A DNA stretch of 64,000 nt from an uncultured delta proteobacterium (GTDB taxonomy: Bacteria > Desulfobacterota > Binatia > DP-6), in NCBI GenBank assembly GCA_963815115.1, contig CAWFFN010000007.1, forward strand, positions 256,001 through 320,000, in the 5' to 3' direction. Within the stretch, counting starts at the first letter, position 1; every line of letters starts with the position of its first letter. This document shows, piece after piece, positions 12,649 through 39,596 of the stretch. The notes beneath the pieces were generated by a model. The model worked only from the letters and a program-made list of their open reading frames with translations. It made no database searches and had not been told where the DNA came from. Made by a program: the position numbers and the translations under genes.

Positions 12649-12800
12649 GAGCGGCGGGAGCGTACCCTCTCCCTTCCTTCACCGTACCTTCATGGACAAG
12701 ACGCTATCAGTATGTTCCCTTCCTGCCGGTGGTAGCGAGGTCCGGCGGGGAAGGCACTCTGAAGAATGAGCCAAGCGTCTGCCGTTCGGCGGGAGCGCCG

Positions 12801-15164
12801 GTGACCGGGGCCGCTCCGCCGAAGGCCGCCGAGCTCCTGAGCGTCGTGGTCCCGGCGTACGACGAGGCGCCGAACCTGGAGCGGCTCGTGTCCGAGGTCC
12901 GCGATGCGCTCGACGCGGCCGGTGTCGCCTGGGAGCTGATCGTGGTCGACGACGGCAGCAGCGACGAGACGCCCGCCGTCCTGGATGCGCTCGCCGCGGC
13001 GGAGCCTCGCCTCCGCCCCCTCCGCCACGCGACGCGACGCGGGCAGACCGCGGCCATCGCGACCGGTTTCGGCGCAGCACGCGGCGAGCTGATCGCCACC
13101 CTCGACGCCGACCTGCAGTGTCGCCCGGAAGAGCTGCCGCGTCTGCTCGCGGCGCTGGGCGATGCCGACGCCGTCTGCGGGGTGCGCATCGGGCGACAGG
13201 ACCCCGGGTCGCGCCGCCTGGCGTCCATGCTGGCGAATGGCGCCCGGCGCATGCTCCTCGCGCCGGGCCTGCGCGATCTGGCGTGTCCCGCGCGCGTGAT
13301 GCGGGCGAGTGCGCTGGCGCGGCTCGCCGACGTGACGCCGCTCTTCGACGGCGCCCACCGCTGGCTGCCTGCGCTCTTCGCGCTGGCGGGGCTTCGTGTC
13401 GTACAGGTCCCGCTTCGCCACTGGCCCCGCCACGCGGGCGTTTCGAAGTACACCACGCGCGGGCGGCTCGGCCCGATCGCGCGCGAGACCGTTCGCGTGG
13501 CCCGGCTCACGTTTCGACGCTCCTGGCGGCAGCGTACGTTCTTCGCCGCAATCGTGCTCGTGCTCGTCGCCACGCCGTACTTTTACGCGCTCGGGCGTTG
13601 GCCGCTCATCGAGCCGGACGAGGGCCGCAATGCCGAGGTGGCGCGCGAGATGCTCGAGCTCGGGCGCTGGAGCGTGCCCCACTTCAACCAGATCCCGTAC
13701 CTCGACAAGCCCACGATGCTCTTCTGGCTCATCGCGGGCTCGTACAAGGTCGTGGGCGTGAACGAGTTCGCCGCCCGCTTGCCGGCGGCAATGAGCGCCG
13801 TCGCGACCGTCGGACTCACCTGGGCGCTCGCGCGGCGGCTCGTGGGAGGCCCGCGAGCGCTACTCGCCGCAGCCATCGTGGCGACGGCGCCGCTCGTCCT
13901 GATCTTCGCGCGCCTGGCGATCTTCGACATGCCGTTCACGGCCTTCGTCACCCTCGCGCTCTGGTGCCTGGTGCGCGCTCGCCTGGACGGTGGAGCAGGG
14001 TGGCTGGTCCCGCTGGCCGGCCTGGCCATGGCCGCCGCGACGCTCACCAAGGGGCCGGTCGGCGTCGCGCTTCCGCTGCTCTCCTGGCTGGCCGGTCGCG
14101 GAGCGCTGCCCGCGCCGCGGGAGCGCACCCCTCGGCGCGCGTTGCTCCTCGCCGGTCTCCTGTTCGTGGCGGCGGTCGGATCCTGGATCGCCATGGTCCA
14201 GCGCTACGAGCCCGGCTTCCTTCACTACGCCCTGGTCGACGAGACCTTCCTGCGCTTCACGTCGGTCGATCGCTTCCGTCGGGGTGGCGCGCCGTACCTC
14301 TACCCGCTCACGCTGGTGTGGGCCCTTGCGCCCTGGAGCGTGTTGCTGGTCGGGGTAGCGCCCGAGCTCGGACGGTGCTGGCGCTTGCCGACGTCCGACG
14401 GGACGGCGCTGCGGTTCGCGACCCGGGTGGCGGGGACCATGATCGTCTTCTTCACCCTCTCCGCCTCGAAGCGGCCCCAGTACATCCTTCCCGCCCTGGT
14501 TCCGCTCGCGATCGTGTGCGCTGTCGGGATCGCCAGACGGCCGGAACGAGCCGCTGGCGCGCTGCGTGCCGGCGCGCTGGGCGCGGTGGTCGGCGGGAGC
14601 GCCCTGGTGGTTGGTGCCATGCACGGGCTGCACCTCGAAGGGGCGGAAGCCTCGGCGGCGTCGGCCTCCGTTCTCATGGCGGGTGGTCTCGTCCTCGTTG
14701 CATGGGGCGCGTTCACCGTCGCAATCCACCGGGTCGGCGCATGGCCGACCATCGCCTGCGCGACGCTCCTCTCGCCCGGAGCCGGGTTCGTCCTTCTCGG
14801 GGCGCTGGCTCCGTGGGTCGACGTGCGCTCTGCGCGCACCCTGGCGACGCTCGTGCCGCCGGGCGCGAATATCGTCGCGTTCCAGCAGTTCCGCACCAGC
14901 TTGCCGTTCTACCTGCGGCGCCCCGTCCCGCTGCTCAGCACGACGGCCGGCGAGCTCACCAGCAACTACATCTGCGCCAACCGGAGTCGCTTCGCCGGCG
15001 GTCCGAACCTGGCGCGCCCCCCCGCCCTCAGGACGATGCTTGCGAGCGGCGAGCCCCTCTACGTCGTCACGCGGCACTCCAAGCTCGACCAGGTCGCCGA
15101 GCTCTCGGGCGGCGCGCTGCGTCCCGTCGACGCGGATGCGCGCAGCGTGCTCCTGCGGCGCTAG
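12801..15164 (+). CDS. fusion of a GT2 polyprenol-phosphate glycosyltransferase (ArnC/DPM1-like) and an ArnT-like (GT83/PMT_2) lipid-carrier glycosyltransferase
   Basis: N-half: SVVVPAYDE, VDDGSSD, TLDADLQ, HRWLPAL, GVSKY. C-half: IEPDEGRNAEVAREM, YLDKP, AARLP, LTKGPVG, SASKRPQYILP. Single open frame; GTG start at 12801 after GGGAG. Confidence 0.85.
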   Translation: MTGAAPPKAAELLSVVVPAYDEAPNLERLVSEVRDALDAAGVAWELIVVDDGSSDETPAVLDALAAAEPRLRPLRHATRRGQTAAIATGFGAARGELIATLDADLQCRPEELPRLLAALGDADAVCGVRIGRQDPGSRRLASMLANGARRMLLAPGLRDLACPARVMRASALARLADVTPLFDGAHRWLPALFALAGLRVVQVPLRHWPRHAGVSKYTTRGRLGPIARETVRVARLTFRRSWRQRTFFAAIVLVLVATPYFYALGRWPLIEPDEGRNAEVAREMLELGRWSVPHFNQIPYLDKPTMLFWLIAGSYKVVGVNEFAARLPAAMSAVATVGLTWALARRLVGGPRALLAAAIVATAPLVLIFARLAIFDMPFTAFVTLALWCLVRARLDGGAGWLVPLAGLAMAAATLTKGPVGVALPLLSWLAGRGALPAPRERTPRRALLLAGLLFVAAVGSWIAMVQRYEPGFLHYALVDETFLRFTSVDRFRRGGAPYLYPLTLVWALAPWSVLLVGVAPELGRCWRLPTSDGTALRFATRVAGTMIVFFTLSASKRPQYILPALVPLAIVCAVGIARRPERAAGALRAGALGAVVGGSALVVGAMHGLHLEGAEASAASASVLMAGGLVLVAWGAFTVAIHRVGAWPTIACATLLSPGAGFVLLGALAPWVDVRSARTLATLVPPGANIVAFQQFRTSLPFYLRRPVPLLSTTAGELTSNYICANRSRFAGGPNLARPPALRTMLASGEPLYVVTRHSKLDQVAELSGGALRPVDADARSVLLRR

Positions 15165-15167
15165 GCC

Positions 15168-17015
15168 GTGTGCGGCATCTACGGAGTCGTCGGGCCGGCG
15201 AGCGACACGCTCGCCGGGGGAATGGGCGCCACGCTGGCGCATCGCGGACCGGACGGCGACGGGACGCGCACGGTGGGCGACGCCACGCTGGGATGCCGGC
15301 GCCTGGCGATCATCGACGTCGCAGGGGGTGCGCAGCCTCTCACCAACGAGACCGGCGACGTGGTCGCGGTCTGCAACGGTGAGATCTACAACCACGCCGC
15401 GCTCCGCGACCGCCTCACCGCGCGCGGCCATCGCTTCCGAACGCGCAGCGACGCCGAGGTGCTCCCGCACCTCTACGAGGAGCACGGACCGGACCTGGTG
15501 CACGAGCTCGAAGGGATGTTCGCGCTCGCCGTCTGGGACGTGCGCGCACGCCGGCTCGTGCTGGCCCGTGACCGTCTGGGAGAAAAGCCGCTCTACCATG
15601 CCGTCGCCGGCGACCATCTCCTCTTCGCCTCGGAGCCGAAGGCGCTCATCGCGACCGGCGCGGTGCGTGCCGAGCCGAACTGGTCGGCCCTCGGCTCATA
15701 TCTCTGCCAGGGCTACGTTCCGTGGCCGGCGAGCGCGTTCGCCGGCATCGAGAAGCTGCCGCCGGGCGGACGGCTGGTACGAGGCCCCGACGGCGCACGG
15801 GTGGATCGCTACTGGAACGCGCCGGCCTGGTGCGCCGCGCCGGCGCTCGACGTCGACCTGTCTTCGGCCGCCACGCAACTGCGAGCGGAGCTGACCCGCG
15901 CGGTACAGGCCGCGCTCATGAGCGACGTGCCGCTCGGTCTCTTCCTGTCGGGCGGCCTCGACTCGACGGCGATGGCCGCGCTCGCCCGGCCCAACCTCGA
16001 CGCGCTCGCCACGTTCTCCATCGGCTTCGACGTGCCCGGGTTCGACGAGCTCGACTACGCGGGCCAGGCGGCGCGCGCCTTCGCGACGCGGCACCGCACG
16101 CTGACCGTCACGCCGGCACTGCTGCTGGAGGGCGTCCATGCGCTGGCGCGCCAGCTCGACGAGCCGCTGGCCGATCCGGCCGTCGTTCCGACGTTTCTCC
16201 TCTCCCGGATGGCACGCGAGGACGTCAAGGTCGTGCTCGTGGGGGAGGGCGGCGACGAGCTCCTCGCCGGCTACCCGACGTACCTGGCAGCGAGGCTGGC
16301 GGCGCGCTACCGCCGCCTCCCGGCCGTGGCGCGCGGGTGGCTCGCGTCGGCGGCCCGATCGGCGGGCGCGTCCGCCGGCAACACCACGCTGCGCTATCTG
16401 GTGCGGCGCTTCATCGAGGAGGCGGATGCAGCGCCCGCCGCCCGCCACCGCGCCTGGACGGGCTGCATGTCGAACGCGCGGCTCGCCGCGATGGTCGCCC
16501 CCGGCAGCCCACTCACCATCCCGCCGGAGCCGGCGGCCGTGACCGCCCGCACGGAGCTCGACGGGCTGCTCGCGCTCGATCTCGAGGGCTACCTGCCCGA
16601 CGACCTGCTTGCCAAGATCGATCGCGCCGGCATGGCGGCATCGCTCGAGGCGCGCGCCCCCTTCGTGAACCATCGTTTCGTGGAGTTCGCCTGCCGGCTT
16701 CCGATCGGGCACAAGCTGCGCGGCCTGCAGACCAAGCGCGTCCTGCGCCGCGCCATGACCGGCCTCGTCCCGGCAGCGATCGTGCGCCGGACGAAGCGCG
16801 GTCTCACCGTTCCGCTCGCCACCTGGCTCGCCGGCCCGCTGCGCGAGTTCGCCACCGACACGCTCGGCCGCCTGGACAAGCGGCTGATCCGGGAAGACGC
16901 GGTGCGCGAGCTGCTCGGGGATCACGTCGCCCGCCGCCGGGACAACCGGCGCGAGCTCTGGGCATTGATCATGCTGCAGCTCTGGCTGGAGCACTTCGTG
17001 ACGCGCGGTCGCTGA
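15168..17015 (+). CDS. asnB: asparagine synthase (glutamine-hydrolysing) family amidotransferase
   Basis: N-terminal MCGI, HRGPD, NGEIYN, RDRLGEKPLY, LSGGLDS, GEGGDEL, SLEARAPF. Confidence 0.93.
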   Translation: MCGIYGVVGPASDTLAGGMGATLAHRGPDGDGTRTVGDATLGCRRLAIIDVAGGAQPLTNETGDVVAVCNGEIYNHAALRDRLTARGHRFRTRSDAEVLPHLYEEHGPDLVHELEGMFALAVWDVRARRLVLARDRLGEKPLYHAVAGDHLLFASEPKALIATGAVRAEPNWSALGSYLCQGYVPWPASAFAGIEKLPPGGRLVRGPDGARVDRYWNAPAWCAAPALDVDLSSAATQLRAELTRAVQAALMSDVPLGLFLSGGLDSTAMAALARPNLDALATFSIGFDVPGFDELDYAGQAARAFATRHRTLTVTPALLLEGVHALARQLDEPLADPAVVPTFLLSRMAREDVKVVLVGEGGDELLAGYPTYLAARLAARYRRLPAVARGWLASAARSAGASAGNTTLRYLVRRFIEEADAAPAARHRAWTGCMSNARLAAMVAPGSPLTIPPEPAAVTARTELDGLLALDLEGYLPDDLLAKIDRAGMAASLEARAPFVNHRFVEFACRLPIGHKLRGLQTKRVLRRAMTGLVPAAIVRRTKRGLTVPLATWLAGPLREFATDTLGRLDKRLIREDAVRELLGDHVARRRDNRRELWALIMLQLWLEHFVTRGR

Positions 17016-17029
17016 AGCGCCCACCGCGC

Positions 17030-17770
17030 TCAGAGACTCTCGAGGATCGCGCGGCGCTTCGCATCGTATTCTGCTGGTGTGATCGTTCCGCCGGCGCGCA
17101 GCCGTTCAAGTGCTTGGAGCCTTTGCTCCACGGTCGCCGCAGCAGTTCCCGCTGGCGGGTTGTGACTCTCCGCGAACGCCTTCGCCGCAGGGCGTTCCGG
17201 CGGCGCGTTGCGCCGGTACTCCCCTGTGTAGACCATCCGGCTCACGAGCTTGGCCGTCCGTACCATCGCGTTCTCGACCGCACCCTCCTCGCTCCAGCCC
17301 TTGTTGGCGCCACGGCTTTCGGTGAACTCACCCACCACGCTTCCGTCCGCTCGTCTCACTGTGCCGTATACGTCGAACTCCGAGTGGCCGGCCCCCATCC
17401 CGATGAGTATGCGCTTCGCTGTGCTACCGCCGTTGATCGCATCGATGCTGCCTGTGATGTTGAGCTGCCCAGTGAGGGGCGCACCCTCGGGGATCACCAC
17501 GGCTTGATAGCCAAGGCCCGATAGCTGCTCGGCGAGAACTTGAGCGTATCGCATGCCGATCGTTTGGAGGGAGCCCGAGTATCGCCGGACGACTGCATCA
17601 CTCGGCACCGCGAACTCCTGTACCGAAATACTCGCGCCACTCGGAGCGCCCGTTCGCGGCGTGGGGCAGCCGCACAGAGCGACGAGCAGCGTCAGGCTGA
17701 TCCAGTCCAGCCGCCCGAAGTTCTGGCTGGAGGCGTTACCGCTCGGGCCGTTCCAGCGGATGGTGGGCAT
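17030..17770 (-). CDS. putative lipoprotein, DUF4410-like domain plus C-terminal SHOCT domain
   Basis: Lipobox-like LCGC; INGGSTAKRILIGMGAGHS motif; C-terminal EQRLQALERLRAGGTITPAEYDAKRRAIL. Confidence 0.7.
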   Translation of the reverse strand: MPTIRWNGPSGNASSQNFGRLDWISLTLLVALCGCPTPRTGAPSGASISVQEFAVPSDAVVRRYSGSLQTIGMRYAQVLAEQLSGLGYQAVVIPEGAPLTGQLNITGSIDAINGGSTAKRILIGMGAGHSEFDVYGTVRRADGSVVGEFTESRGANKGWSEEGAVENAMVRTAKLVSRMVYTGEYRRNAPPERPAAKAFAESHNPPAGTAAATVEQRLQALERLRAGGTITPAEYDAKRRAILESL

Positions 17771-18068
17771 CGTGGACCATGTACCAGGCTCTCTCGGCGC
17801 CTTACAAGCACATTCCGGGGCGGGCTAGATCGTTGCGCTGACGGTGTGGTGCTGTCCGGGGACACTACGCTCGCATGGACGTGGAAGCCGACTGGACGAT
17901 CCGACCTGCGAGGTTGGGGTTGCCGTGCGCCGCAGACGCCTGCGCCCGGGGGCGGACGCTGCGGACGCGTTGGGAGTGCAGCAGATGGGTTCCTGAACCC
18001 CGACCCGTCGCCTCACAGGAGGTTGCGAGCACCGACGTGGCCGTGTAACTCCGCGAGTTACTTACGTC

Positions 18069-18105
18069 GAGCCGTTAGCTCAGTCGGTAGAGCAGCTGCC
18101 TTTTA
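18069..18105 (+). tRNA. tRNA-Lys(TTT), 5' half of an interrupted gene
   Basis: GAGCCGT-TA-GCTC-AGTCGGTA-GAGC-A-GCTGC-CTTTTA: acceptor strand, D-arm and anticodon stem/loop through position 37, then unrelated sequence. Confidence 0.92.
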
Positions 18106-18107
18106 CG

Positions 18108-18527
18108 GTGACCGCCAACACGTTGATCGGCGGTACGACAAGCACGACGAGTACGACGAGTACGACGACCACGCGACCCTGCACGAGCGCGGCCTGTACG
18201 ACGACCACGCTACCCTGCACGAGCGCGACCTGTACCTTGCGAGCTGCCCTCACTGGCGCCGCGTGCGTAGGTCAGCCCATTCCGGCAAGCGTCGCCGGTA
18301 AGCTCACGACGGCCGCGTATCTCATCGATAAGGCCACCATGGCTTCCGCCAAGAAGGCCCGCAAGCTCCGCCAGCGAGCGAAGCACCTCCTCAAGCGGGC
18401 GGGTGCGACGGCGACGCATGCCGCGAAGGGCAAGAAGGCGAAGCTGTCGGCCGCGTGCGCCACCGCCCTGAAGGACGCCGCGCGGGCAGTGTGGCCGCGC
18501 GGACCACTCGGAACACGGGCGCGCTGA
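18108..18527 (+). pseudogene. C-terminal fragment of a secreted protein (Thr-rich linker plus basic helical domain)
   Basis: TTSTTSTTSTTTT linker, duplicated PCTSAxC unit, KKARKLRQRAKHLLKRA helix; no SD or signal peptide, and the frame runs directly out of the tRNA half. Confidence 0.65.
18160..18231 (+). repeat. 36-bp tandem duplication (2 copies, 34/36 identical)
   Basis: GTACGACGACCACGCGACCCTGCACGAGCGCGGCCT followed by GTACGACGACCACGCTACCCTGCACGAGCGCGACCT. Confidence 0.9.
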
Positions 18528-18618
18528 TCGCGCGGGCCGCTCCGAAGGCGAGGTCTCGTTTGGAACGTGCGACTACTCCCCCCGCTCGGCAGCGGGTCCA
18601 AGTGGTATGCCCTCGATT

Positions 18619-18651
18619 GGCTTGTACTCGGTGTGTACCGGGTGTGTACCG
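18619..18651. repeat. three tandem 11-bp repeats, putative integrase arm-type binding sites
   Basis: GGCTTGTACTC GGTGTGTACCG GGTGTGTACCG. Confidence 0.7.
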
Positions 18652-18756
18652 GAACGGGTCCCCATCCCTCGCCATCCCGGGCGTGGGCGAAGGACGAAAG
18701 GCTCGCCGTTTCGCGCCTGGGATGGTGTCGGATGGGCTGGTGCACAGCACGATGGC

Positions 18757-18800
18757 GCCTTTTAAGCAGCGGGTCACTGGTTCGATCCCAGTACGGCTCA
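18757..18800 (+). tRNA. tRNA-Lys(TTT), 3' half (attR-like fragment)
   Basis: GCCTTTTAA-GCAGC-GGGTC-ACTGG-TTCGATC-CCAGT-ACGGCTC-A; GCAGC and ACGGCTC pair perfectly with the 5' half. Confidence 0.92.
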
Positions 18801-19003
18801 CTCGTTTCCGCCGGCGGTTCAGGGGCTTGGCGGCCCAACGCCGCAGCAGCCTTCTCTGGTAGCCGCTCGGTGCTACCTGTGGTTGCTACTCGATCGCGTG
18901 CGACGCGTTGCGCGGCGTCGAGCTTGTGGGCGGCGCAGCGCAACGAAGGCCGACGCAGCGGCGCTCGCCACGAGCGCGAAGGGCGGCCGGCTCACGAGGC
19001 TGT

Positions 19004-19471
19004 TCACCGCGAAGCCGGCGCGCGCTTCGAATTGAGTTCCTTCCAGCGCCGGATCATGTCGTGCCCTTCGGCGCGTCTCTTCTCGAGGTGCTCGTACCAC
19101 GGCTCGTCGAACTGGGTGAATTCGACCACGTTGCTGTCGGGGTCGCGGATCGCGGTGATCGTCATCGGCCCCATCTTCCGCGGCGGATAGAGGAGCTGCA
19201 CCCCGTGCGCCGCGAGCCTCTTCACGTGAACCTCCATATCGAACACCTCGAACGCGAGCTTCACGGAGCCCACGCCGCAGCCTTCCCCCGCGAAGTTCTC
19301 GACGGGGTGGATCGCGAAGTGGAGGTCGCCGAGTTCGCAGCCATAGTGCTTGAGCGACGGCCCGTGCTCCTCCTCCTCGAGCGGCACGCCGATCACGTCG
19401 CGGTAGAAGGCCGCCAGGCGATCGTGGTTGGGGGAAGCAAGTAGCACGGCGCCGAGGAACTCTACCTTCAT
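19004..19471 (-). CDS. VOC/glyoxalase family protein
   Basis: LAAFYRDVIG, LAFEVFDM, IRDPDSNVVEF; ATG at 19471 after GGAGG. Confidence 0.85.
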   Translation of the reverse strand: MKVEFLGAVLLASPNHDRLAAFYRDVIGVPLEEEEHGPSLKHYGCELGDLHFAIHPVENFAGEGCGVGSVKLAFEVFDMEVHVKRLAAHGVQLLYPPRKMGPMTITAIRDPDSNVVEFTQFDEPWYEHLEKRRAEGHDMIRRWKELNSKRAPASR

Positions 19472-19554
19472 GAAGACCTCCAAGCGGCCAGCATGGCCGG
19501 CGACTGGTGATGGACGAGCCTCGGAAGGGTGTCGCTGACGAGTCGAGTCGTGCG

Positions 19555-19602
19555 TTGACTTAGCGGATCGGCTAATCATATGCTTAGCTCAGGTGCTAAG
19601 CA
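19555..19602 (+). promoter_or_regulatory. sigma70 promoter overlapped by two palindromic ArsR-type operators
   Basis: TTGACT-N18-TATGCT; TTAGC-N6-GCTAA at 19560-19575 and TGCTTAGC-N6-GCTAAGCA at 19581-19602. Confidence 0.75.
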
Positions 19603-19615
19603 AAGGAGGTTCGCG

Positions 19616-19948
19616 GTGAGCACGGAACACGGCGAGACGGTGATCTGCCACTACCACGTGAAGTCCGGCTCCGAGAAGGAGTTCGAAGCGCTGCTGCGCC
19701 GGCACTGGTCGACGCTGAAGCGACTCGGGACCGTGACGGACGAGCCGAGTCAGATCTATCGAGGCGTTGACGGGAAGGGCCGTCCGACGTTCTGGGAGAT
19801 CTTCACCTGGAAAAGTCCAGGGGCCTTCCAGCAGGCGCACACTCATCCGGACGTGCTCGCGATCTGGGAGCCGATGGACGTGCTGTGCGAGCCGCGCGAC
19901 GGGCGTCCGAACATGGAGTTCCCGCACGTCGAGCGCCTCGAGCTGTGA
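19616..19948 (+). CDS. small dimeric alpha/beta-barrel (ABM-like) protein
   Basis: YHVKSGSEKEFEALL...EIFTWKS...AHTHPDV; GTG start after AGGAGG. Confidence 0.7.
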   Translation: MSTEHGETVICHYHVKSGSEKEFEALLRRHWSTLKRLGTVTDEPSQIYRGVDGKGRPTFWEIFTWKSPGAFQQAHTHPDVLAIWEPMDVLCEPRDGRPNMEFPHVERLEL

Positions 19949-20331
19949 GCCGCGACCGCCCATCGCTCGCGGAGCAGCTCGACGAGCTCGACCGCGTGTT
20001 CGCCGCGCTCGGGCACGCCTCGCGCCGTCACATCCTGGGCGTGCTGAAGGCGCGAGGCAGCCGCGTCCGGGCGGGGGACATCGCACGCCGCTTCGCGTGC
20101 AGCTGGCCCACCACGACCCGGCACCTGCGCGTGCTTGAGAACGCAAGACTCGTGCGCATCGAGCAGAAGGGGCGGGAACGCTGGTACGTACTCGAGGCGG
20201 AACTCCTCCAGCGCGTCGCCGGGGGCTGGTTGGCGGCATTCCGCAGCGCGGCGGGCAGACCCGCGCCGAGCCGGCGGGCCGGTCGGGGGGGTAGGGGCAA
20301 CGAGAATCGACCGCTACGTCACCATTCCTAG
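19945..20331 (+). CDS. ArsR/SmtB family transcriptional regulator
   Basis: VFAALGHASRRHIL...AGDIARRF...TTRHLRVLENARLV...GRERWY; GTGA overlap with the upstream gene. Confidence 0.88.
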   Translation: MSRDRPSLAEQLDELDRVFAALGHASRRHILGVLKARGSRVRAGDIARRFACSWPTTTRHLRVLENARLVRIEQKGRERWYVLEAELLQRVAGGWLAAFRSAAGRPAPSRRAGRGGRGNENRPLRHHS

Positions 20332-32052: not shown

Positions 32053-32178
32053 TCCGCCGCCGAAAGGGTTCTCGACAGGGGCCAGCTTCGCTGGCAGTCT
32101 CGTCGGGGCCCGAGGGCCACGCGGGCGCGAGCGGTCGCGCCGCGCGTGGCGGCCGGCGAGCAGATCCCGAGCGATCTC

Positions 32179-34245
32179 ATGAGAGACACCGCGCAGCCGG
32201 AGAGGGACGTGAGGTCGCCGCGTGCCGCGCACGAGCGCGCCCGCGAGACGCCGCGTACGGCGGTGGCGACGTCGCCGCCGCGGGTCGTCATCGAAGGCGT
32301 GACGCCCGAGATCGAGGGCGGCCGTTTCGCGGTGAAGCGGGTGGTCGGCGAGCGCGTGACCGTCGGCGCCGACGTGTTCGCCGAGGGCCACGATCGGCTT
32401 GCCGCGGTGCTGCGCATGCGGCGCTGGGGCGAGCCGACCTGGCACGAGATCCCCATGGAGCCACGCGAGAACGATCGCTGGGAAGCGACGTTCACCGTGA
32501 CGGAGCTGGGTACCTACGAGTACGTGGTGCACGCATGGGTCGACGCCTTTGCGTCCTGGCGCGGAGGGTTGGCGAAGAAGTCCGCCGCAGGGCTCGACGT
32601 GACGAGCGAGCTGCTCGAGGGCGCCGCGCTCCTCCGGCGCGCGGCCGAGCGCGCCGGGGGCGCCGATCGGAACTGGCTCTCCGAGCAGGCTCGCATGGTC
32701 GGCGGTAGCGGCGAGATGACGGTCCGGACGAGCGCGGCGCTGGCGCCGGAGCTCGCCGCCTGTGTCGCGCGGCATCCCGATCGCACGGCCGAGAGCCGCT
32801 ACGATCACGTCCTGCACGTGACGGTCGATCGCGAGCGGGGGCAAGCCGGCGCGTGGTACGAGATGTTCCCGCGCTCGGCGGCGGCCGAGGCGGGGCGCCA
32901 CGGGACGCTCGCCGACGTCGTCGCGCGCCTTCCGTACGTCGCGGGGATGGGCTTCGACGTCCTGTATCTCCCGCCGATTCACCCCATCGGCCGCACCCAT
33001 CGCAAGGGACGCAACAATACGCCAACCGCCGGGCCGGAAGATCCGGGCAGCCCGTGGGCCATCGGCGCCGCGGAGGGCGGCCACGACGCCGTGCATCCGG
33101 AGCTCGGGACGCTGGCCGACTTCGACCGTCTGGTCGCCGCCGCCCGGGACCACGGACTCGAGATCGCCCTCGACCTGGCCTTCCAGTGCTCGCCCGACCA
33201 CCCGTGGGTCGCGGCGCACCCGGGCTGGTTCCGGCACCGGCCGGACGGCACGGTGCAGTACGCTGAGAATCCCCCGAAGAAGTACCAGGACATCTACCCG
33301 CTCGATTTCGAATGCCGCGACTGGCGGGCGCTGTGGGACGAGCTGCGGCGGATCGTGCTCTTCTGGGTCGACCACGGCGTGCGCATCTTCCGCGTCGACA
33401 ATCCCCACACCAAGCCTTTCGCCTTCTGGGAATGGTTGATCCGCGAGGTCCAGGCGGTGCAGCCCGAGGTGCTCTTTCTGGCCGAGGCGTTCACGCGCCC
33501 GAAGGTGATGCGCTATCTCGCCAAGGTCGGCTTCTCGCAGTCGTACACCTACTTCACCTGGCGGAACACCAAGGCCGAGCTGATCGAGTACATGACCGAG
33601 CTCACCCGGACGGACGTGCGCGAGTACATGCGGCCCAACCTGTTCGTCAACACGCCCGACATCTTGAACGAGTACCTCCAGGTGGGCGGCCGGCCGGCGT
33701 TCCAGATCCGCTTCCTCCTCGCCGCGACGCTCGGCGCTACCTACGGCATCTACGGCCCGCCCTTCGAGCTGTGCCAGGCGCGCGCCATGTCCGGTGCCGA
33801 GGAGTACGAGGACGGCGAGAAGTACGAGGTCCGGCACTGGGACCTCGAGCAGCCGGACAGCCTGCGCGCCTTCATCGCGCGGGTGAACGAGATCCGGCGC
33901 GAGAACCCGGCCTTCCGCTCGAACGACCGGCTGCGCTTCTGTCCCGTCGACAACGACCGGCTCATCGCGTACGTGAAGACCACGGCGGATCTCGGAAATC
34001 AGGTGCTGGTGATCGTGACGCTCGATCCTCACCACCCGCAGAGCGGCTGGGTGGACGTTCCGCTGGAGGAGATGGGCCTCGATCCGCGCCAGCCGTTCCA
34101 GGTCCACGACCTGCTCGGCGACGCGCGCTTTCTCTGGTCCGGACCGCGCAGCTTCGTGGCGCTCGATGCGAACGCCGTGCCGGGTCACGTGTTCCGCATC
34201 CGGCGGCGGCTGCGCACCGAGCGAGACTTCGACTACTTCCTGTGA
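32179..34245 (+). CDS. glgE: alpha-1,4-glucan:maltose-1-phosphate maltosyltransferase
   Basis: [48 protein letters not shown]; start uncertain (32146/32179/32209). Confidence 0.95.
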
Positions 34246-34258
34246 TTCTGGACTGGAT

Positions 34259-37639
<3,381 letters not shown>

Positions 37640-37652
37640 ACGGAGACGCCGC

Positions 37653-39596
37653 ATGAATCGCGCCGCCCAGGTTTCCACGACGCCGCAGGCCGTGACCCTG
37701 CTCACCGATCAGGACCTCTACCTCTTCAACGAGGGCACGCATCTCGGGCTGGCCGACAAGCTCGGCGCCCATGCCATGACCGCCGGCGGCGCTGCGGGGA
37801 CCTGCTTCGGGGTCTGGGCGCCGAATGCGGAGGCGGTCTCCGTGATGGGCGACTTCAACGGGTGGCGGCCGTCGGAGCATGCGCTGCGCCCGCGCGCGGC
37901 GTCGGGGATCTGGGAAGGGTTCGTGCCCGGGGTCGGGCGCGGGGCGCACTACAAGTACCACGTCGTGTCGCGCCTCGGCGGCTACCAGGTCGACAAGGCC
38001 GATCCCTTCGCGTTCCACGGCGAGGTGCCCCCGCGGACGGCCTCGATCGTGTGGCCGCTCGAATACGAGTGGAGCGACGGTGAGTGGATGGCGGAGCGGG
38101 GCGGTCGCAACGCGCTGGGCGCTCCGCTCGCCATCTACGAGGTGCACCTGGGCTCGTGGCGCCGCGTGCCGGAGGACGGTAACCGCTCGCTCGGCTACCG
38201 CGAGATCGCGCCGCTGCTGGCGGACTACGTCGGCGCGGCGGGGTTCACCCACGTCGAGCTCCTGCCCATCATGGAGCATCCGTTCTACGGCTCGTGGGGG
38301 TATCAGACGACCGGCTACTTCTCGCCCACCAGCCGCTACGGGACGCCGCAGGACTTGATGTACCTGATCGACTACCTTCACCAGCGCGGGATCGGCGTCA
38401 TCCTCGACTGGGTTCCGTCGCACTTCCCGACCGACGAGCACGGCCTCGGCTTCTTCGACGGCGAGCACCTCTTCGAGCACCAGGATCCGCGACAGGGCTT
38501 CCACCCCGACTGGGGCAGCTTCATCTTCAACTACGGCCGCAACGAGGTGCGCAGCTTCCTCCTGAGCAGCGCGCTCTTCTGGCTCGACCGGTATCACGCG
38601 GACGGCCTTCGCGTGGATGCCGTCGCCTCCATGCTCTACCTCGACTACTCGCGCCGCGCCGGGGAGTGGATTCCCAACAAGTACGGGGGGCGGGAAAACC
38701 TCGAGGCGATCGATTTCCTCCGCCATCTGAACACGAGCGTCTACGAGCGCCAGCCCGCGGTGCAGACGTTCGCCGAGGAATCGACCGCCTGGCCGATGGT
38801 GTCGCGCCCGACGTACGTCGGCGGGCTGGGGTTCGGGATGAAGTGGGACATGGGCTGGATGCACGACACGCTCGCCTACATGTCGCACGAGCCCGTCCAC
38901 CGGAAGTTCCACCACAGCGAGCTGACCTTCCGGATGATGTACGCCTTCGCGGAGAACTTCGTCCTGCCCCTCTCGCACGACGAGGTCGTGTACGGGAAAG
39001 GCTCTCTGCTGGGAAAGATGCCGGGCGGCGAGTGGCAGCAGCGCGCCAACCTGCGCCTCCTCCTGGGCTACATGTACACCCAGCCCGGCAAGAAGCTCCT
39101 CTTCATGGGCGGCGAGTTCGGGCAGTGGCGCGAGTGGAATCACGAAGCGAGCCTCGACTGGCATCTGCTCGACCAGCCGGAACACGCGGCGCTCCTGCGC
39201 TGGGTCCGCGACCTGAACACGACCTATCGCGGCGAACCGGCCCTCCACGAGCTCGACACCAGCGTCGGGGGCTTCGAGTGGATCGACTGCAACGATGCGG
39301 AGCAGAGCGTGCTCGTCTTCGCCCGTCGCGCCCGCTCGAGCTCCGACGTCCTCATCGTCGCCTGCAACTTCACGCCCGTGCCGCGCGGGAACTACCGGAT
39401 CGGCGTGCCCACCCCGGGCCGCTGGGCCGAGACCCTGAACAGCGACGCGCCGCTCTACGGCGGCAGCGGACAGGGCAACCTGGGCGGCGTCGTCACGGCG
39501 CCGGTCCGCTGGCACGGGCGTCCGCAGTCGATCAACGTCACGTTGCCGCCGCTCGGCATGGTCGTGTTCAAGGGCAGCGGTGGCGCCCCGGGGTAG
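37653..39596 (+). CDS. glgB: 1,4-alpha-glucan branching enzyme
   Basis: [55 protein letters not shown]. Confidence 0.97.

Follow-up and report, generated by a model that had tools for sequence, protein, structure and literature searches.

The window, a stretch of 64,000 nucleotides of a metagenome-derived assembly, contains a tRNA-Lys(UUU) gene that lies in two halves, at positions 18069-18105 and 18765-18800, both on the forward strand. The 5' half carries tRNA positions 1-37 in their native upstream context and spans the acceptor, the D arm, the 5' strand of the anticodon stem and the loop through A37; the 3' half carries positions 38-73 in their native downstream context. The 5' half ends in the left copy of an 8-bp direct repeat, GCCTTTTA (18098-18105, tRNA positions 30-37), and the right copy of the same repeat (18757-18764) immediately precedes the 3' half; both copies were read directly. 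Between the two copies is an insert of 651 bp on the forward strand (18106-18756), or 659 bp if one copy of the repeat is included, which has a G+C content of 68% and no terminal inverted repeats, and which occurs once in the genome.

The two halves together make up a complete tRNA. When long introns are allowed, ARAGORN reports a regular cloverleaf for tRNA-Lys(ttt) over 18069-18801 with a 659-nt 'intron', and with its default settings the split tRNA-Lys(ttt) is not called. Positions 1-37, and positions 30-73 as encoded at 18757-18800, both match the uninterrupted tRNA-Lys(UUU) gene of three relatives (G001, G012 and G018) at 100% identity, which is far above chance level. The initial annotation had described a split tRNA-Lys(UUU) gene with a flawless cloverleaf and a duplication at both junctions, and the sequence, the ARAGORN prediction and the identity to the gene of the relatives bear out that description. 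The flanks are native as well: 25-40 nt of the upstream flank are conserved in six relatives (G002, G008, G013, G018, G020 and G024), and the downstream flank matches that of G013 for up to 135 nt and is conserved with G002 too. Because the halves are undecayed and sit in their native flanks, we consider the event that split the gene to be recent.

The insert consists of a truncated gene and a non-coding arm

The left part of the insert is an open frame of 139 codons (18108-18527, forward strand). It represents the 3' fragment of a gene that is truncated at the left junction and encodes a secreted-type protein; the encoded segment has a Thr-rich linker, Cys pairs and a Lys-rich tail. The frame starts 2 nt past the left junction, and its residues 1-113 correspond to residues 462-574 of the 581-aa protein P0001, with 112 of the 113 residues identical, while the last seven residues of P0001 are encoded by the window DNA read one base out of frame. 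The left edge of the insert thus falls at codon 461/462 of the P0001 gene, which is intact on another metagenome contig. The first 461 codons of that gene are absent from the genome and from the 30 relatives searched, in which the best matches are paralogues of 53-54%. Similarly, the insert ORF matches the C-terminal end of a 420-aa paralogue encoded on contig C4 of the same genome (58% identity, E 3e-24) and the C-terminal end of an 805-aa protein of G010. The module is present in all 56 longer homologues and forms the C-terminal end in the three (of three) that were aligned.

Of the 401 genomes of the class that were searched, including this one, no other contains the whole insert, the insert ORF used as query had no relative among genome contigs, a protein search at near length returned no identical short ORF, and P0001 used as query had none among viral contigs. 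Close orthologues of the neighbouring glyoxalase and DUF4410 proteins were observed on small metagenome contigs, P0080 on one of 8983 bp and P0074 and P0075 on contigs of 1.7-2.0 kb. The protein clusters of these two neighbours have no member on a 3659-bp contig such as that of P0001, and the DUF4410 protein was not found in the other 24 genomes of the family.

The insert had been described as lacking an integrase, and this holds: none of the three ORFs that overlap it belongs to a Pfam family, no integrase domain is present in the ORFs scanned between 12.7 and 39.6 kb, and none of the 18 PF00589 matches in the genome is inside the window. There is also no tRNA within the insert.

The remainder of the insert is a non-coding right arm (18528-18756, forward strand), which contains a tandem 11-mer (about 18630-18652) with only three occurrences genome-wide and a 23-nt inverted repeat (18661-18683 and 18714-18736). 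A 43-nt stretch of the arm (18628-18668) matches positions 380837-380878 of contig C8, within an island at tRNA-Lys(CUU), with a score of 51, compared to a mean of 20 and a maximum of 41 for shuffled sequences. Three other candidate similarities were rejected. The right arm scores 16-19 against the remnant arms found in relatives or at tRNA-Lys(CUU), which is chance level (shuffle means 16-17); the insert repeats 10 nt of the tRNA (positions 39-48) at 18589-18598, but 53 of 500 shuffles do equally well; and tblastx of the insert against all loci yielded noise except for the ORF module.

No other tRNA-Lys(UUU) gene is present in the assembly

The assembly (6.9 Mb in 12 contigs, 100% complete) represents a soil bacterium of the Binatia class. 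Each of the 45 other expected tRNAs is present once, and a genome-wide search with ARAGORN and RF00005 found no second or intact tRNA-Lys(UUU) in the whole assembly, including its seven contigs of 6-50 kb. Within the assembly, tRNA-Lys(UUU) therefore has the single gene per isotype that is a condition of tRNA-dependent lysogeny. The AAA codon is not depleted: in 3381 long ORFs, there are 1489 AAA codons versus 27056 AAG codons, and rpoB alone has two AAA codons. The occurrence of AAA codons within the window had been noted before, and we indeed find them in the ORFs for GlgB (one), TreS-Mak (two) and a Rieske/FAD reductase (three). Since AAA codons are normally used, some tRNA-Lys(UUU) must be present.

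The anticodon loop of tRNA-Lys(UUU) is a recombination hot spot in relatives

The anticodon loop of tRNA-Lys(UUU) is a hot spot of recombination, where the tyrosine-integrase islands of relatives cross over. In G006 and G018, we find 5' remnants that end at position 39, each with a tyrosine integrase (PF00589) adjoining the intact tRNA, and in G009, G010 and G013 there are 3' remnants that start at position 32. All of the remnants in relatives diverge within CTTTTAAG, and their common core is positions 32-39. In G003, which belongs to the same genus, two contigs begin within the anticodon loop of tRNA-Lys(UUU). An uninterrupted tRNA-Lys(UUU) is found in 15 of the 24 other genomes of the family, and the insert in none of them. 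In the genome analysed here, tRNA-Lys(CUU) is occupied by tandem islands; these comprise two integrases and a pair of 3' remnants, both of which begin in the anticodon loop. The best match in this genome to the integrases that act at the tRNA-Lys(UUU) loop in G006 and G018 is 32% identical. At the split gene, with its repeat at tRNA positions 30-37, the crossover is likewise in the anticodon loop, a known sublocation.

The insert has no features of known introns

No intron or ribozyme family of Rfam was found at E values up to 1 in 7 kb or up to 10 in 791 nt. The splicing endonuclease EndA (PF01974) has no match in the genome, and the control search was positive in four archaeal genomes. The repeat itself constrains any splice junction. 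It makes the last intron base identical to the last exon base for exon ends at positions 30-37, and the U(-1)/G(omega) pair is thus impossible; with an exon end at position 29, the last intron base is C. As regards a bulge-helix-bulge motif at the two junctions, inspection by eye shows that the last 8 nt of the intron repeat the last 8 nt of the exon and do not pair with them.

Searches of metagenome contigs and public reads

Probes for the left and right junctions, which are specific to the integrated form and blind to a free attP, had no matches in JGI metagenome contigs, and core-plus-arm probes had none in viral contigs. A search of public runs returned 20 runs, the best of which held 0.27 of the sampled words. 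The Logan contigs of runs X1, X2, X3 and X5 were compared with positions 17000-20000 of the window; their depth on the flanks of the organism is about 1-5. Both X1 and X2 hold pieces identical to the flanks, and the thin contigs of X1-X3 have no record over 18111-18716 and bridge neither junction. Joints that skip the 659 nt were seen in X3 and X5; the sequence upstream of them does not fit the window, and they are thus intact tRNA genes of other organisms. X2 also contains two 151-nt records, one ending at 18067 and the other beginning at 18801.

Origin of the split gene

We give an even chance to the explanation that the locus is a dead copy of the gene, the recent product of an island at this site that underwent illegitimate recombination or deletion, and that the working copy is outside the assembly. 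An island would have integrated in the anticodon loop, bringing its own 3' tRNA half, and a normal right junction, consisting of the island arm and the native 3' half, would have resulted. In a later, aberrant event, the restored tRNA would have been fused in its loop, after A37, to an island gene at codon 462, and the tRNA half brought by the island would have been lost together with the integrase and most of the cargo. The locus would retain the two native tRNA halves and, between them, the 3' end of the gene and 229 bp of the island arm, and the 8-bp repeat would represent the shared att core. The cells would obtain tRNA-Lys(UUU) either from an allele that is intact in other cells or in other copies of the chromosome, or from a tRNA on an unbinned element. 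We infer both this order of events and the whereabouts of the working tRNA. The left side is without the arm needed for lambda-type excision and this copy is unable to yield a working tRNA, so that the supply would have to come from outside the assembly. The parent gene of the fragment, that of P0001, was presumably once inside an island at tRNA-Lys(UUU), and an island origin is favoured by the genome-rare 43-nt motif that the insert arm and the tRNA-Lys(CUU) island have in common. An aberrant recent excision had been among the possibilities raised at the outset, and this part of the proposal fits best; its rider, that a second tRNA-Lys(UUU) made the loss tolerable, finds no support, as the assembly contains none.

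Several points count against the explanation by a dead copy. Where a gene is essential and single-copy, its null allele should not be what an assembler reports; the window retains neither an integrase nor any other gene of an island; and the right arm has no significant similarity to the remnant arms of relatives or of tRNA-Lys(CUU). The repeat corresponds to positions 30-37, versus a core of 32-39 in relatives, and a deletion end exactly in a 7-nt loop would need the action of an integrase. In addition, there is no independent sighting of the allele in JGI metagenome or viral contigs.

The 8-bp common core, the failure to rebuild the tRNA and the single host gene of the isotype would also fit a primary short-core insertion, in which a recombinase joined the loop to DNA sharing just 8 bp with it, the tRNA was never restored and the dominant genotype lives on a copy carried by an unbinned phage, plasmid or island. 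The normal use of AAA codons calls for some tRNA-Lys(UUU), and the assembly appears to be a metagenome bin, from which mobile elements are frequently missing. There is also a precedent, in that the same isotype is disrupted by Fionnbharth-type phages via a 10-bp core, as described in PMC10865867. We nevertheless think a primary insertion unlikely: the insert has neither an integrase nor a tRNA, it is at 651 bp much too short to be the whole element, it starts on the left with a truncated gene, and no contig of the assembly, even among the seven of 6-50 kb, carries a tRNA-Lys(UUU). We also rather doubt the corresponding claim about the dominant genotype, that its sole chromosomal tRNA-Lys(UUU) is knocked out at an integrase crossover site and that about 5% of its lysine codons are decoded by a tRNA of an unbinned mobile element. 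A living dominant genotype is hard to reconcile with the loss of an essential gene, which speaks for an artefact of assembly or of the consensus, a possibility also raised in the initial annotation: the join may follow a chimeric path, or the backbone may represent a rare structural variant from a few reads, with the gene intact in most cells, either alone or together with a full island. The assembly of G003 breaks at the same loop, which points to mixed alleles in the genus, contig C9 of the present assembly likewise begins at a tRNA, and neither junction has been independently sighted. An artefact is still rather improbable, as both junctions lie at one 8-bp core within one tRNA, which is the signature of recombination and not of a chimeric join; the single-copy insert offers no genomic repeat to cause collapse; and the site is interior to a contig of 1.24 Mb. 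Moreover, a rare real variant would still be a real molecule, to which the explanation by a dead copy would apply.

Both of the remaining possibilities, each of them put forward in the initial annotation, would let this copy of the gene function, and neither fares well. An excisable mini-element, from which a recombinase from elsewhere cuts the 659 bp at the 8-bp repeats and so switches the tRNA on or off at the DNA level, is consistent with the exact direct repeats in the loop where the integrases of the family cross over, with the tandem and inverted repeats of the right arm, which are candidate protein-binding sites, and with the presence in the genome of 18 tyrosine-recombinase matches, of which two belong to islands with a crossover in the tRNA-Lys(CUU) loop. 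It is very unlikely, however, given that the left end is a broken coding sequence without an arm, inside a gene that is intact elsewhere, that the integrase closest to those of the G006 and G018 site users is only 32% identical, hence no close homologue, and that the insert is single-copy and absent from 400 other genomes of the class. Furthermore, an essential tRNA needs restoring in every growing cell, so that a switch would be pointless. An IS256-derived MITE was rejected as well, since the ends of the insert do not match the inverted repeats of the IS256-family element in this genome (scores of 11-13, compared to 34 between the element's own ends). We give hardly any credence to removal at the RNA level, either by a new kind of intron or by ribozyme cuts followed by RtcB ligation. 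The undecayed halves in their native context would suit it, the repeat permits a junction at the canonical 37/38, the predicted fold retains the four tRNA stems with the insert as one large loop, and RtcB is encoded in the genome. But RtcB is also encoded in 10 of 14 control genomes, the fold, taken with the tRNA halves, has a z-score of only -2.4, the bulk of the 'intron' is a piece of a protein gene with an intact counterpart elsewhere, and the 15 relatives whose gene is intact carry nothing of the kind; the missing RNA-family match, the impossible U(-1)/G(omega) pair and the lack of EndA likewise speak against it.

Significance and relation to known systems

Our literature search found no report of a bacterial genome in which the sole tRNA-Lys(UUU) is split by an integrase-less insert. 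If the split gene is the majority allele, then the organism depends on a tRNA encoded off its chromosome. This would be a simple, little-studied route for a mobile element to become indispensable, and it would extend tRNA-dependent lysogeny beyond actinobacteriophages, with a dependence that outlives the loss of the disrupting element. If instead the split gene is a minority variant or a relic, it provides a clean example of anticodon-loop integrases destroying their own target, and a caution that the tRNA complement of a metagenome bin may contain errors at the hot spots of islands. The locus also shows that, in this poorly known class, the tRNA-Lys(UUU) loop is much used for attachment.

The skin and nifD elements, which measure kilobases, carry a gene for their own recombinase and disrupt genes that are needed only in terminal cells. 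The split tRNA gene resembles them in that a gene is interrupted in the DNA between short direct repeats, but here there is no recombinase, the two ends are not a pair of natural attachment sites with a cognate recombinase, and the interrupted gene is needed by every growing cell. In comparison with MITEs, the 8-bp repeat would pass as a target-site duplication, having the same length as that at the C7 copy of an IS256-family element, while terminal inverted repeats are absent, as are multiple copies in this genome and in 400 others of the class.

Genomic islands with an anticodon-loop crossover in tRNA genes were reportedly described by Williams in 2002, and relatives, as well as tRNA-Lys(CUU) of the genome analysed here, show the standard form of such islands. 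In that form, as given in the description of Islander, a collection of genomic islands in tRNA genes, the island carries an integrase and a tRNA fragment that restores the gene; 148 of its 3919 entries are 'islands with damage' (PMC4383910). The locus shares with the islands described there the anticodon-loop sublocation and a right junction made of an island arm and the displaced 3' part of the tRNA (PMC4383910). Unlike them, it has neither a restoring fragment nor an integrase, and the gene remains in pieces, with two complementary halves that overlap by 8 bp in place of an intact tRNA and a displaced fragment.

Group I introns in the anticodon loops of bacterial tRNAs, the longest of those reported being 1817 nt, were described in a preprint by Williams (2020; doi 10.1101/2020.01.27.920355). 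The insert is like them in being an intervening sequence in a tRNA anticodon loop that ARAGORN reports as an 'intron', with 659 nt falling within the size range reported there. It differs from the introns of that preprint in that it has no Rfam match to a catalytic core and no U(-1)/G(omega) pair, is not conserved in relatives and contains part of a protein gene.

A close parallel is tRNA-dependent lysogeny, described for actinobacteriophages by Guerrero-Bustamante and Hatfull (2024; PMC10865867). In the cases presented there, an entire prophage is inserted into an actinobacterial host; it encodes a tyrosine integrase as well as a tRNA-Lys-TTT of its own, on which the survival of the lysogen depends. 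Here, the host is a soil bacterium of the Binatia class, the insert is 651 bp with neither integrase nor tRNA, and the assembly holds no replacement tRNA. The two have in common a single-copy host tRNA-Lys-TTT gene, a very short core (10 bp there and 8 bp here), and junctions of which neither rebuilds the tRNA.

The only tRNA-Lys(UUU) gene of the assembly is split in its anticodon loop

In the assembly of the genome under study (G000; 12 contigs totalling 6.89 Mb at 70% G+C, with completeness rated 100% and contamination 3%), which we infer to be a metagenome bin of the class Binatia, the tRNA-Lys(UUU) gene lies in two pieces, with tRNA positions 1-37 at 18069-18105 and positions 38-73 at 18765-18800 of the window, which spans contig C7 from 256001 to 320000. 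The repeat GCCTTTTA, which is tRNA positions 30-37, is found at both 18098-18105 and 18757-18764, with 651 bp between the copies. The split tRNA-Lys is not called by ARAGORN at default settings; when long introns are allowed, the program folds the locus into a regular tRNA-Lys(ttt) interrupted by 659 nt. Since each half is 100% identical to the uninterrupted tRNA-Lys(UUU) of three relatives (G001, G012 and G018), and the halves retain the upstream and downstream flanks seen around the relatives' intact gene, this is a native gene that has been split, and neither half has decayed. The split gene is as the initial annotation described it, with an exact match in the coordinates of the halves, the repeat and the spacing.

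The neighbourhood of the gene is variable in the genus, since synteny with G001-G003 comes no closer to the tRNA than about 5.4 kb on the upstream side and, for G002, is picked up again some 21 kb away on the downstream side. Between the shared synteny block and the tRNA (12729-17770) are genes for a GT2/PMT glycosyltransferase fusion, an asparagine synthase and a DUF4410/SHOCT protein, the last of which is found in none of the other 24 family genomes; in G003, from the same genus, the 5′ half of the tRNA is only about 210 bp beyond the block shared with G001-G003. Downstream, a row of genes at 32146-39596 (GlgE, a TreS-Mak fusion and GlgB) makes up the alpha-glucan pathway via maltose-1-phosphate.

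Across the whole assembly, ARAGORN made 60 tRNA calls and the Rfam tRNA model 45 above its cut-off. By manual reading of both lists, the 45 are a full bacterial set in which each anticodon that is expected has one gene, that of tRNA-Lys(CUU) being at C8:393055-393127; tRNA-Lys(UUU) is the sole anticodon absent from it. Neither program finds in the assembly the second tRNA-Lys(UUU) that had been supposed to make the split tolerable. AAA codons are in normal use and have not been purged: in 3381 long ORFs with coding-type composition, lysine is encoded by 1489 AAA and 27 056 AAG codons (AAA 5.2%), a share comparable to those of CAA (6.1%) and ACA (4.7%), and 1060 of these ORFs have at least one AAA. 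The rpoB ORF has two, and several adjoining ORFs of its cluster have one or two each. An anticodon with C34 cannot decode AAA; thus, a working tRNA-Lys(UUU) is required.

The tRNA-Lys anticodon loop is an attachment site for islands

We compared the site in 24 other genomes of the family. An uninterrupted full-length tRNA-Lys(UUU), at 90-100% identity, is present in 15 of them (twice in G020), and 8, with completeness from 78% to 99%, lack such a match. In G003 (100% complete), the 5′ part starts one contig (C20:1-34, minus strand; L024) and the 3′ part starts another (C2:1-38; L023); both break inside the anticodon loop, one loop T is unaccounted for, and no G003 contig has an intact gene. 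Several relatives carry remnants of the tRNA: 5′ remnants of positions 1-39, 100% identical, are 10-12 kb upstream of the intact gene in G006 and G018, a decayed 5′ remnant is 1.2 kb upstream of it in G005, and 3′ remnants from position 32 onward occur in G009, G010 and G013. Since every remnant departs from the tRNA sequence within CTTTTAAG, the loop is an attachment site used by islands that carry one or the other half of the gene. Both kinds are listed in Islander, where the 2083 anticodon-centred sites are recorded alongside 3760 islands that left a 3′ fragment and 159 that left a 5′ fragment (PMC4383910). A tyrosine integrase directly adjoins the tRNA in G006 and in G018 (68% identity between the two); G000 encodes no close homologue of them, the best match being 32% identical.

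G000 shows the same island biology at tRNA-Lys(CUU) as its relatives do at tRNA-Lys(UUU). Tandem islands with IS elements inside occupy C8:372767-393127 (L050 and L051), with tyrosine integrases at C8:375378-376523 and C8:391742-393046 and with 3′ tRNA remnants, at about C8:376588 and 372767, that begin in the anticodon loop CTCTTAA. Contig C9 begins at a tRNA-Gly(CCC) gene (C9:2-74), a break at a tRNA as is expected at island hot spots.

The insert joins a truncated gene to a non-coding arm

One open frame of 139 codons (18108-18527) fills nearly all of the left 422 bp of the insert. Its best match, P0001, is a 581-aa protein encoded on a 3659-bp metagenome contig; ORF residues 1-113 correspond to P0001 residues 462-574 with 112 of 113 identical, and the sole mismatch is a GTG read as M by the tool. 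The final seven residues of P0001 equal the window DNA translated one base out of frame, so the DNA is the same over ~360 nt except for a 1-nt indel. Some very close relative thus has the whole of a gene that the left junction cuts at codon 461/462. The first 461 codons are absent from G000 and the 30 relatives searched, in which the best matches are paralogues at 53-54%. ORF residues 38-125 align to the C-terminal 90 residues of a 420-aa paralogue with the same module (C4:30678-31940, L043:1679-2941; 58% identity, E 3e-24) and to the tail of an 805-aa G010 protein carrying Big_9 and propeller-type domains. The module, a Thr-rich linker and two or three Cys followed by a Lys-rich helix ending ...KGKKxKLSxxCAxAL..., has no Pfam family; a search among longer proteins gave 56 that match it. 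Their N-terminal domains are diverse and of secreted type (GSDH PF07995, delta-60 repeat PF17164, Big_9, von Willebrand-like), and the module may be a group-specific tail for sorting or anchoring. The linker of the truncated ORF contains an imperfect 36-nt tandem repeat (18138-18218).

The right 229 bp (18528-18756) are non-coding, with a tandem 11-mer and a 23-nt inverted repeat. A 43-nt stretch across the tandem repeat aligns to C8:380837-380878, within an island at tRNA-Lys(CUU), with a score of 51 (300 shuffles: mean 20, maximum 41), and the 11-mer occurs three times in the genome, twice in the insert and once at the C8 site. tRNA positions 39-48 are copied exactly at 18589-18598 (GCAGCGGGTC). 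When extended, the alignment of this copy with the 3′ half does not reach significance (equalled by 53 of 500 shuffles).

The insert has no terminal inverted repeats and is single-copy in G000, unlike a transposon. A search of 400 further genomes from the class did not find it; the ORF module alone is matched in part, by 3 of the 24 within the family and by none of the 376 beyond it. An IS256-family element (Mutator-type transposase PF00872, 1376 bp) occurs as two 100% identical copies (C8:381345-382720 and C7:692270-693645), and is probably active, since the copy on C7 has an 8-bp duplication at its flanks; its ends are unlike those of the insert, which is thus not its derivative. Nor is the insert a self-contained integrative element, as it holds neither integrase nor tRNA. 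No integrase domain was found in the ORFs scanned at 12.7-39.6 kb of the window, and all 18 PF00589 matches of the genome lie outside the window.

Origin of the split locus and supply of the tRNA

We favour, with about as much confidence as doubt, the view that recombination at an integrase hot spot scarred the locus and left a dead copy of tRNA-Lys(UUU). The right junction resembles the usual right boundary of an island that brings in a 3′ tRNA half, an arm followed by native tRNA from position 30, and the left junction is a break within a gene. In the simplest history, an island with a restored tRNA at its left end would once have occupied the site, and an illegitimate event would have fused codon 462 of one of the island's genes to the loop after A37, deleting the island's tRNA half, its integrase and its remaining cargo. 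The event was probably made by an integrase, because it lands in the crossover region. Alternatively, a small circle cut from the parent locus may have inserted via an 8-bp pseudo-core. Under both, the split locus cannot make tRNA-Lys(UUU). Three observations indicate that the event is very recent: a nearly identical gene is intact elsewhere, the halves have not decayed, and AAA is used normally. Of the explanations in the initial annotation, a recent aberrant excision tolerated through a second tRNA comes closest; the excision fits, but the second tRNA is not in the assembly.

As assembled, the sole copy of an essential gene is a null allele, which admits four readings. It is unlikely, if conceivable, that the cell depends on a working gene on DNA outside the bin, which would resemble the tRNA-dependent lysogeny described for Mycobacterium smegmatis (PMC10865867), where phages use a 10-bp core to break the single tRNA-Lys-TTT, for which they bring a copy of their own. 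That the split allele is a minority or artefactual assembly path is rather unlikely too; a hint of mixed alleles in the genus comes from the G003 assembly, which breaks in this loop. Restoration of the gene by excision of the insert is distinctly improbable, as the anatomy of the locus disfavours it: with the left arm missing, excision by a lambda-type integrase should, on the lambda paradigm, be poor. The same anatomy disfavours removal at the RNA level, to which we give hardly any credence. With an E limit of 1, Rfam matches no intron or ribozyme family in 7 kb; with a limit of 10, hairpin noise is all that it gives in 791 nt. The repeat forces the last base of a candidate intron to equal the last base of the 5′ exon, which makes the U(-1)/G(omega) combination impossible; 98.5% of the raw calls reported for bacterial tRNA group I introns have it (Williams preprint, doi 10.1101/2020.01.27.920355). 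The G000 genome encodes no splicing endonuclease; RtcB is present, as it is in 10 of 14 control genomes, and the predicted fold preserves the tRNA stems with a z-score of only -2.4.

On the reading we favour, the locus is a damaged island at a tRNA gene, which is of a known kind; what is unusual is that the sole gene was left unrestored.
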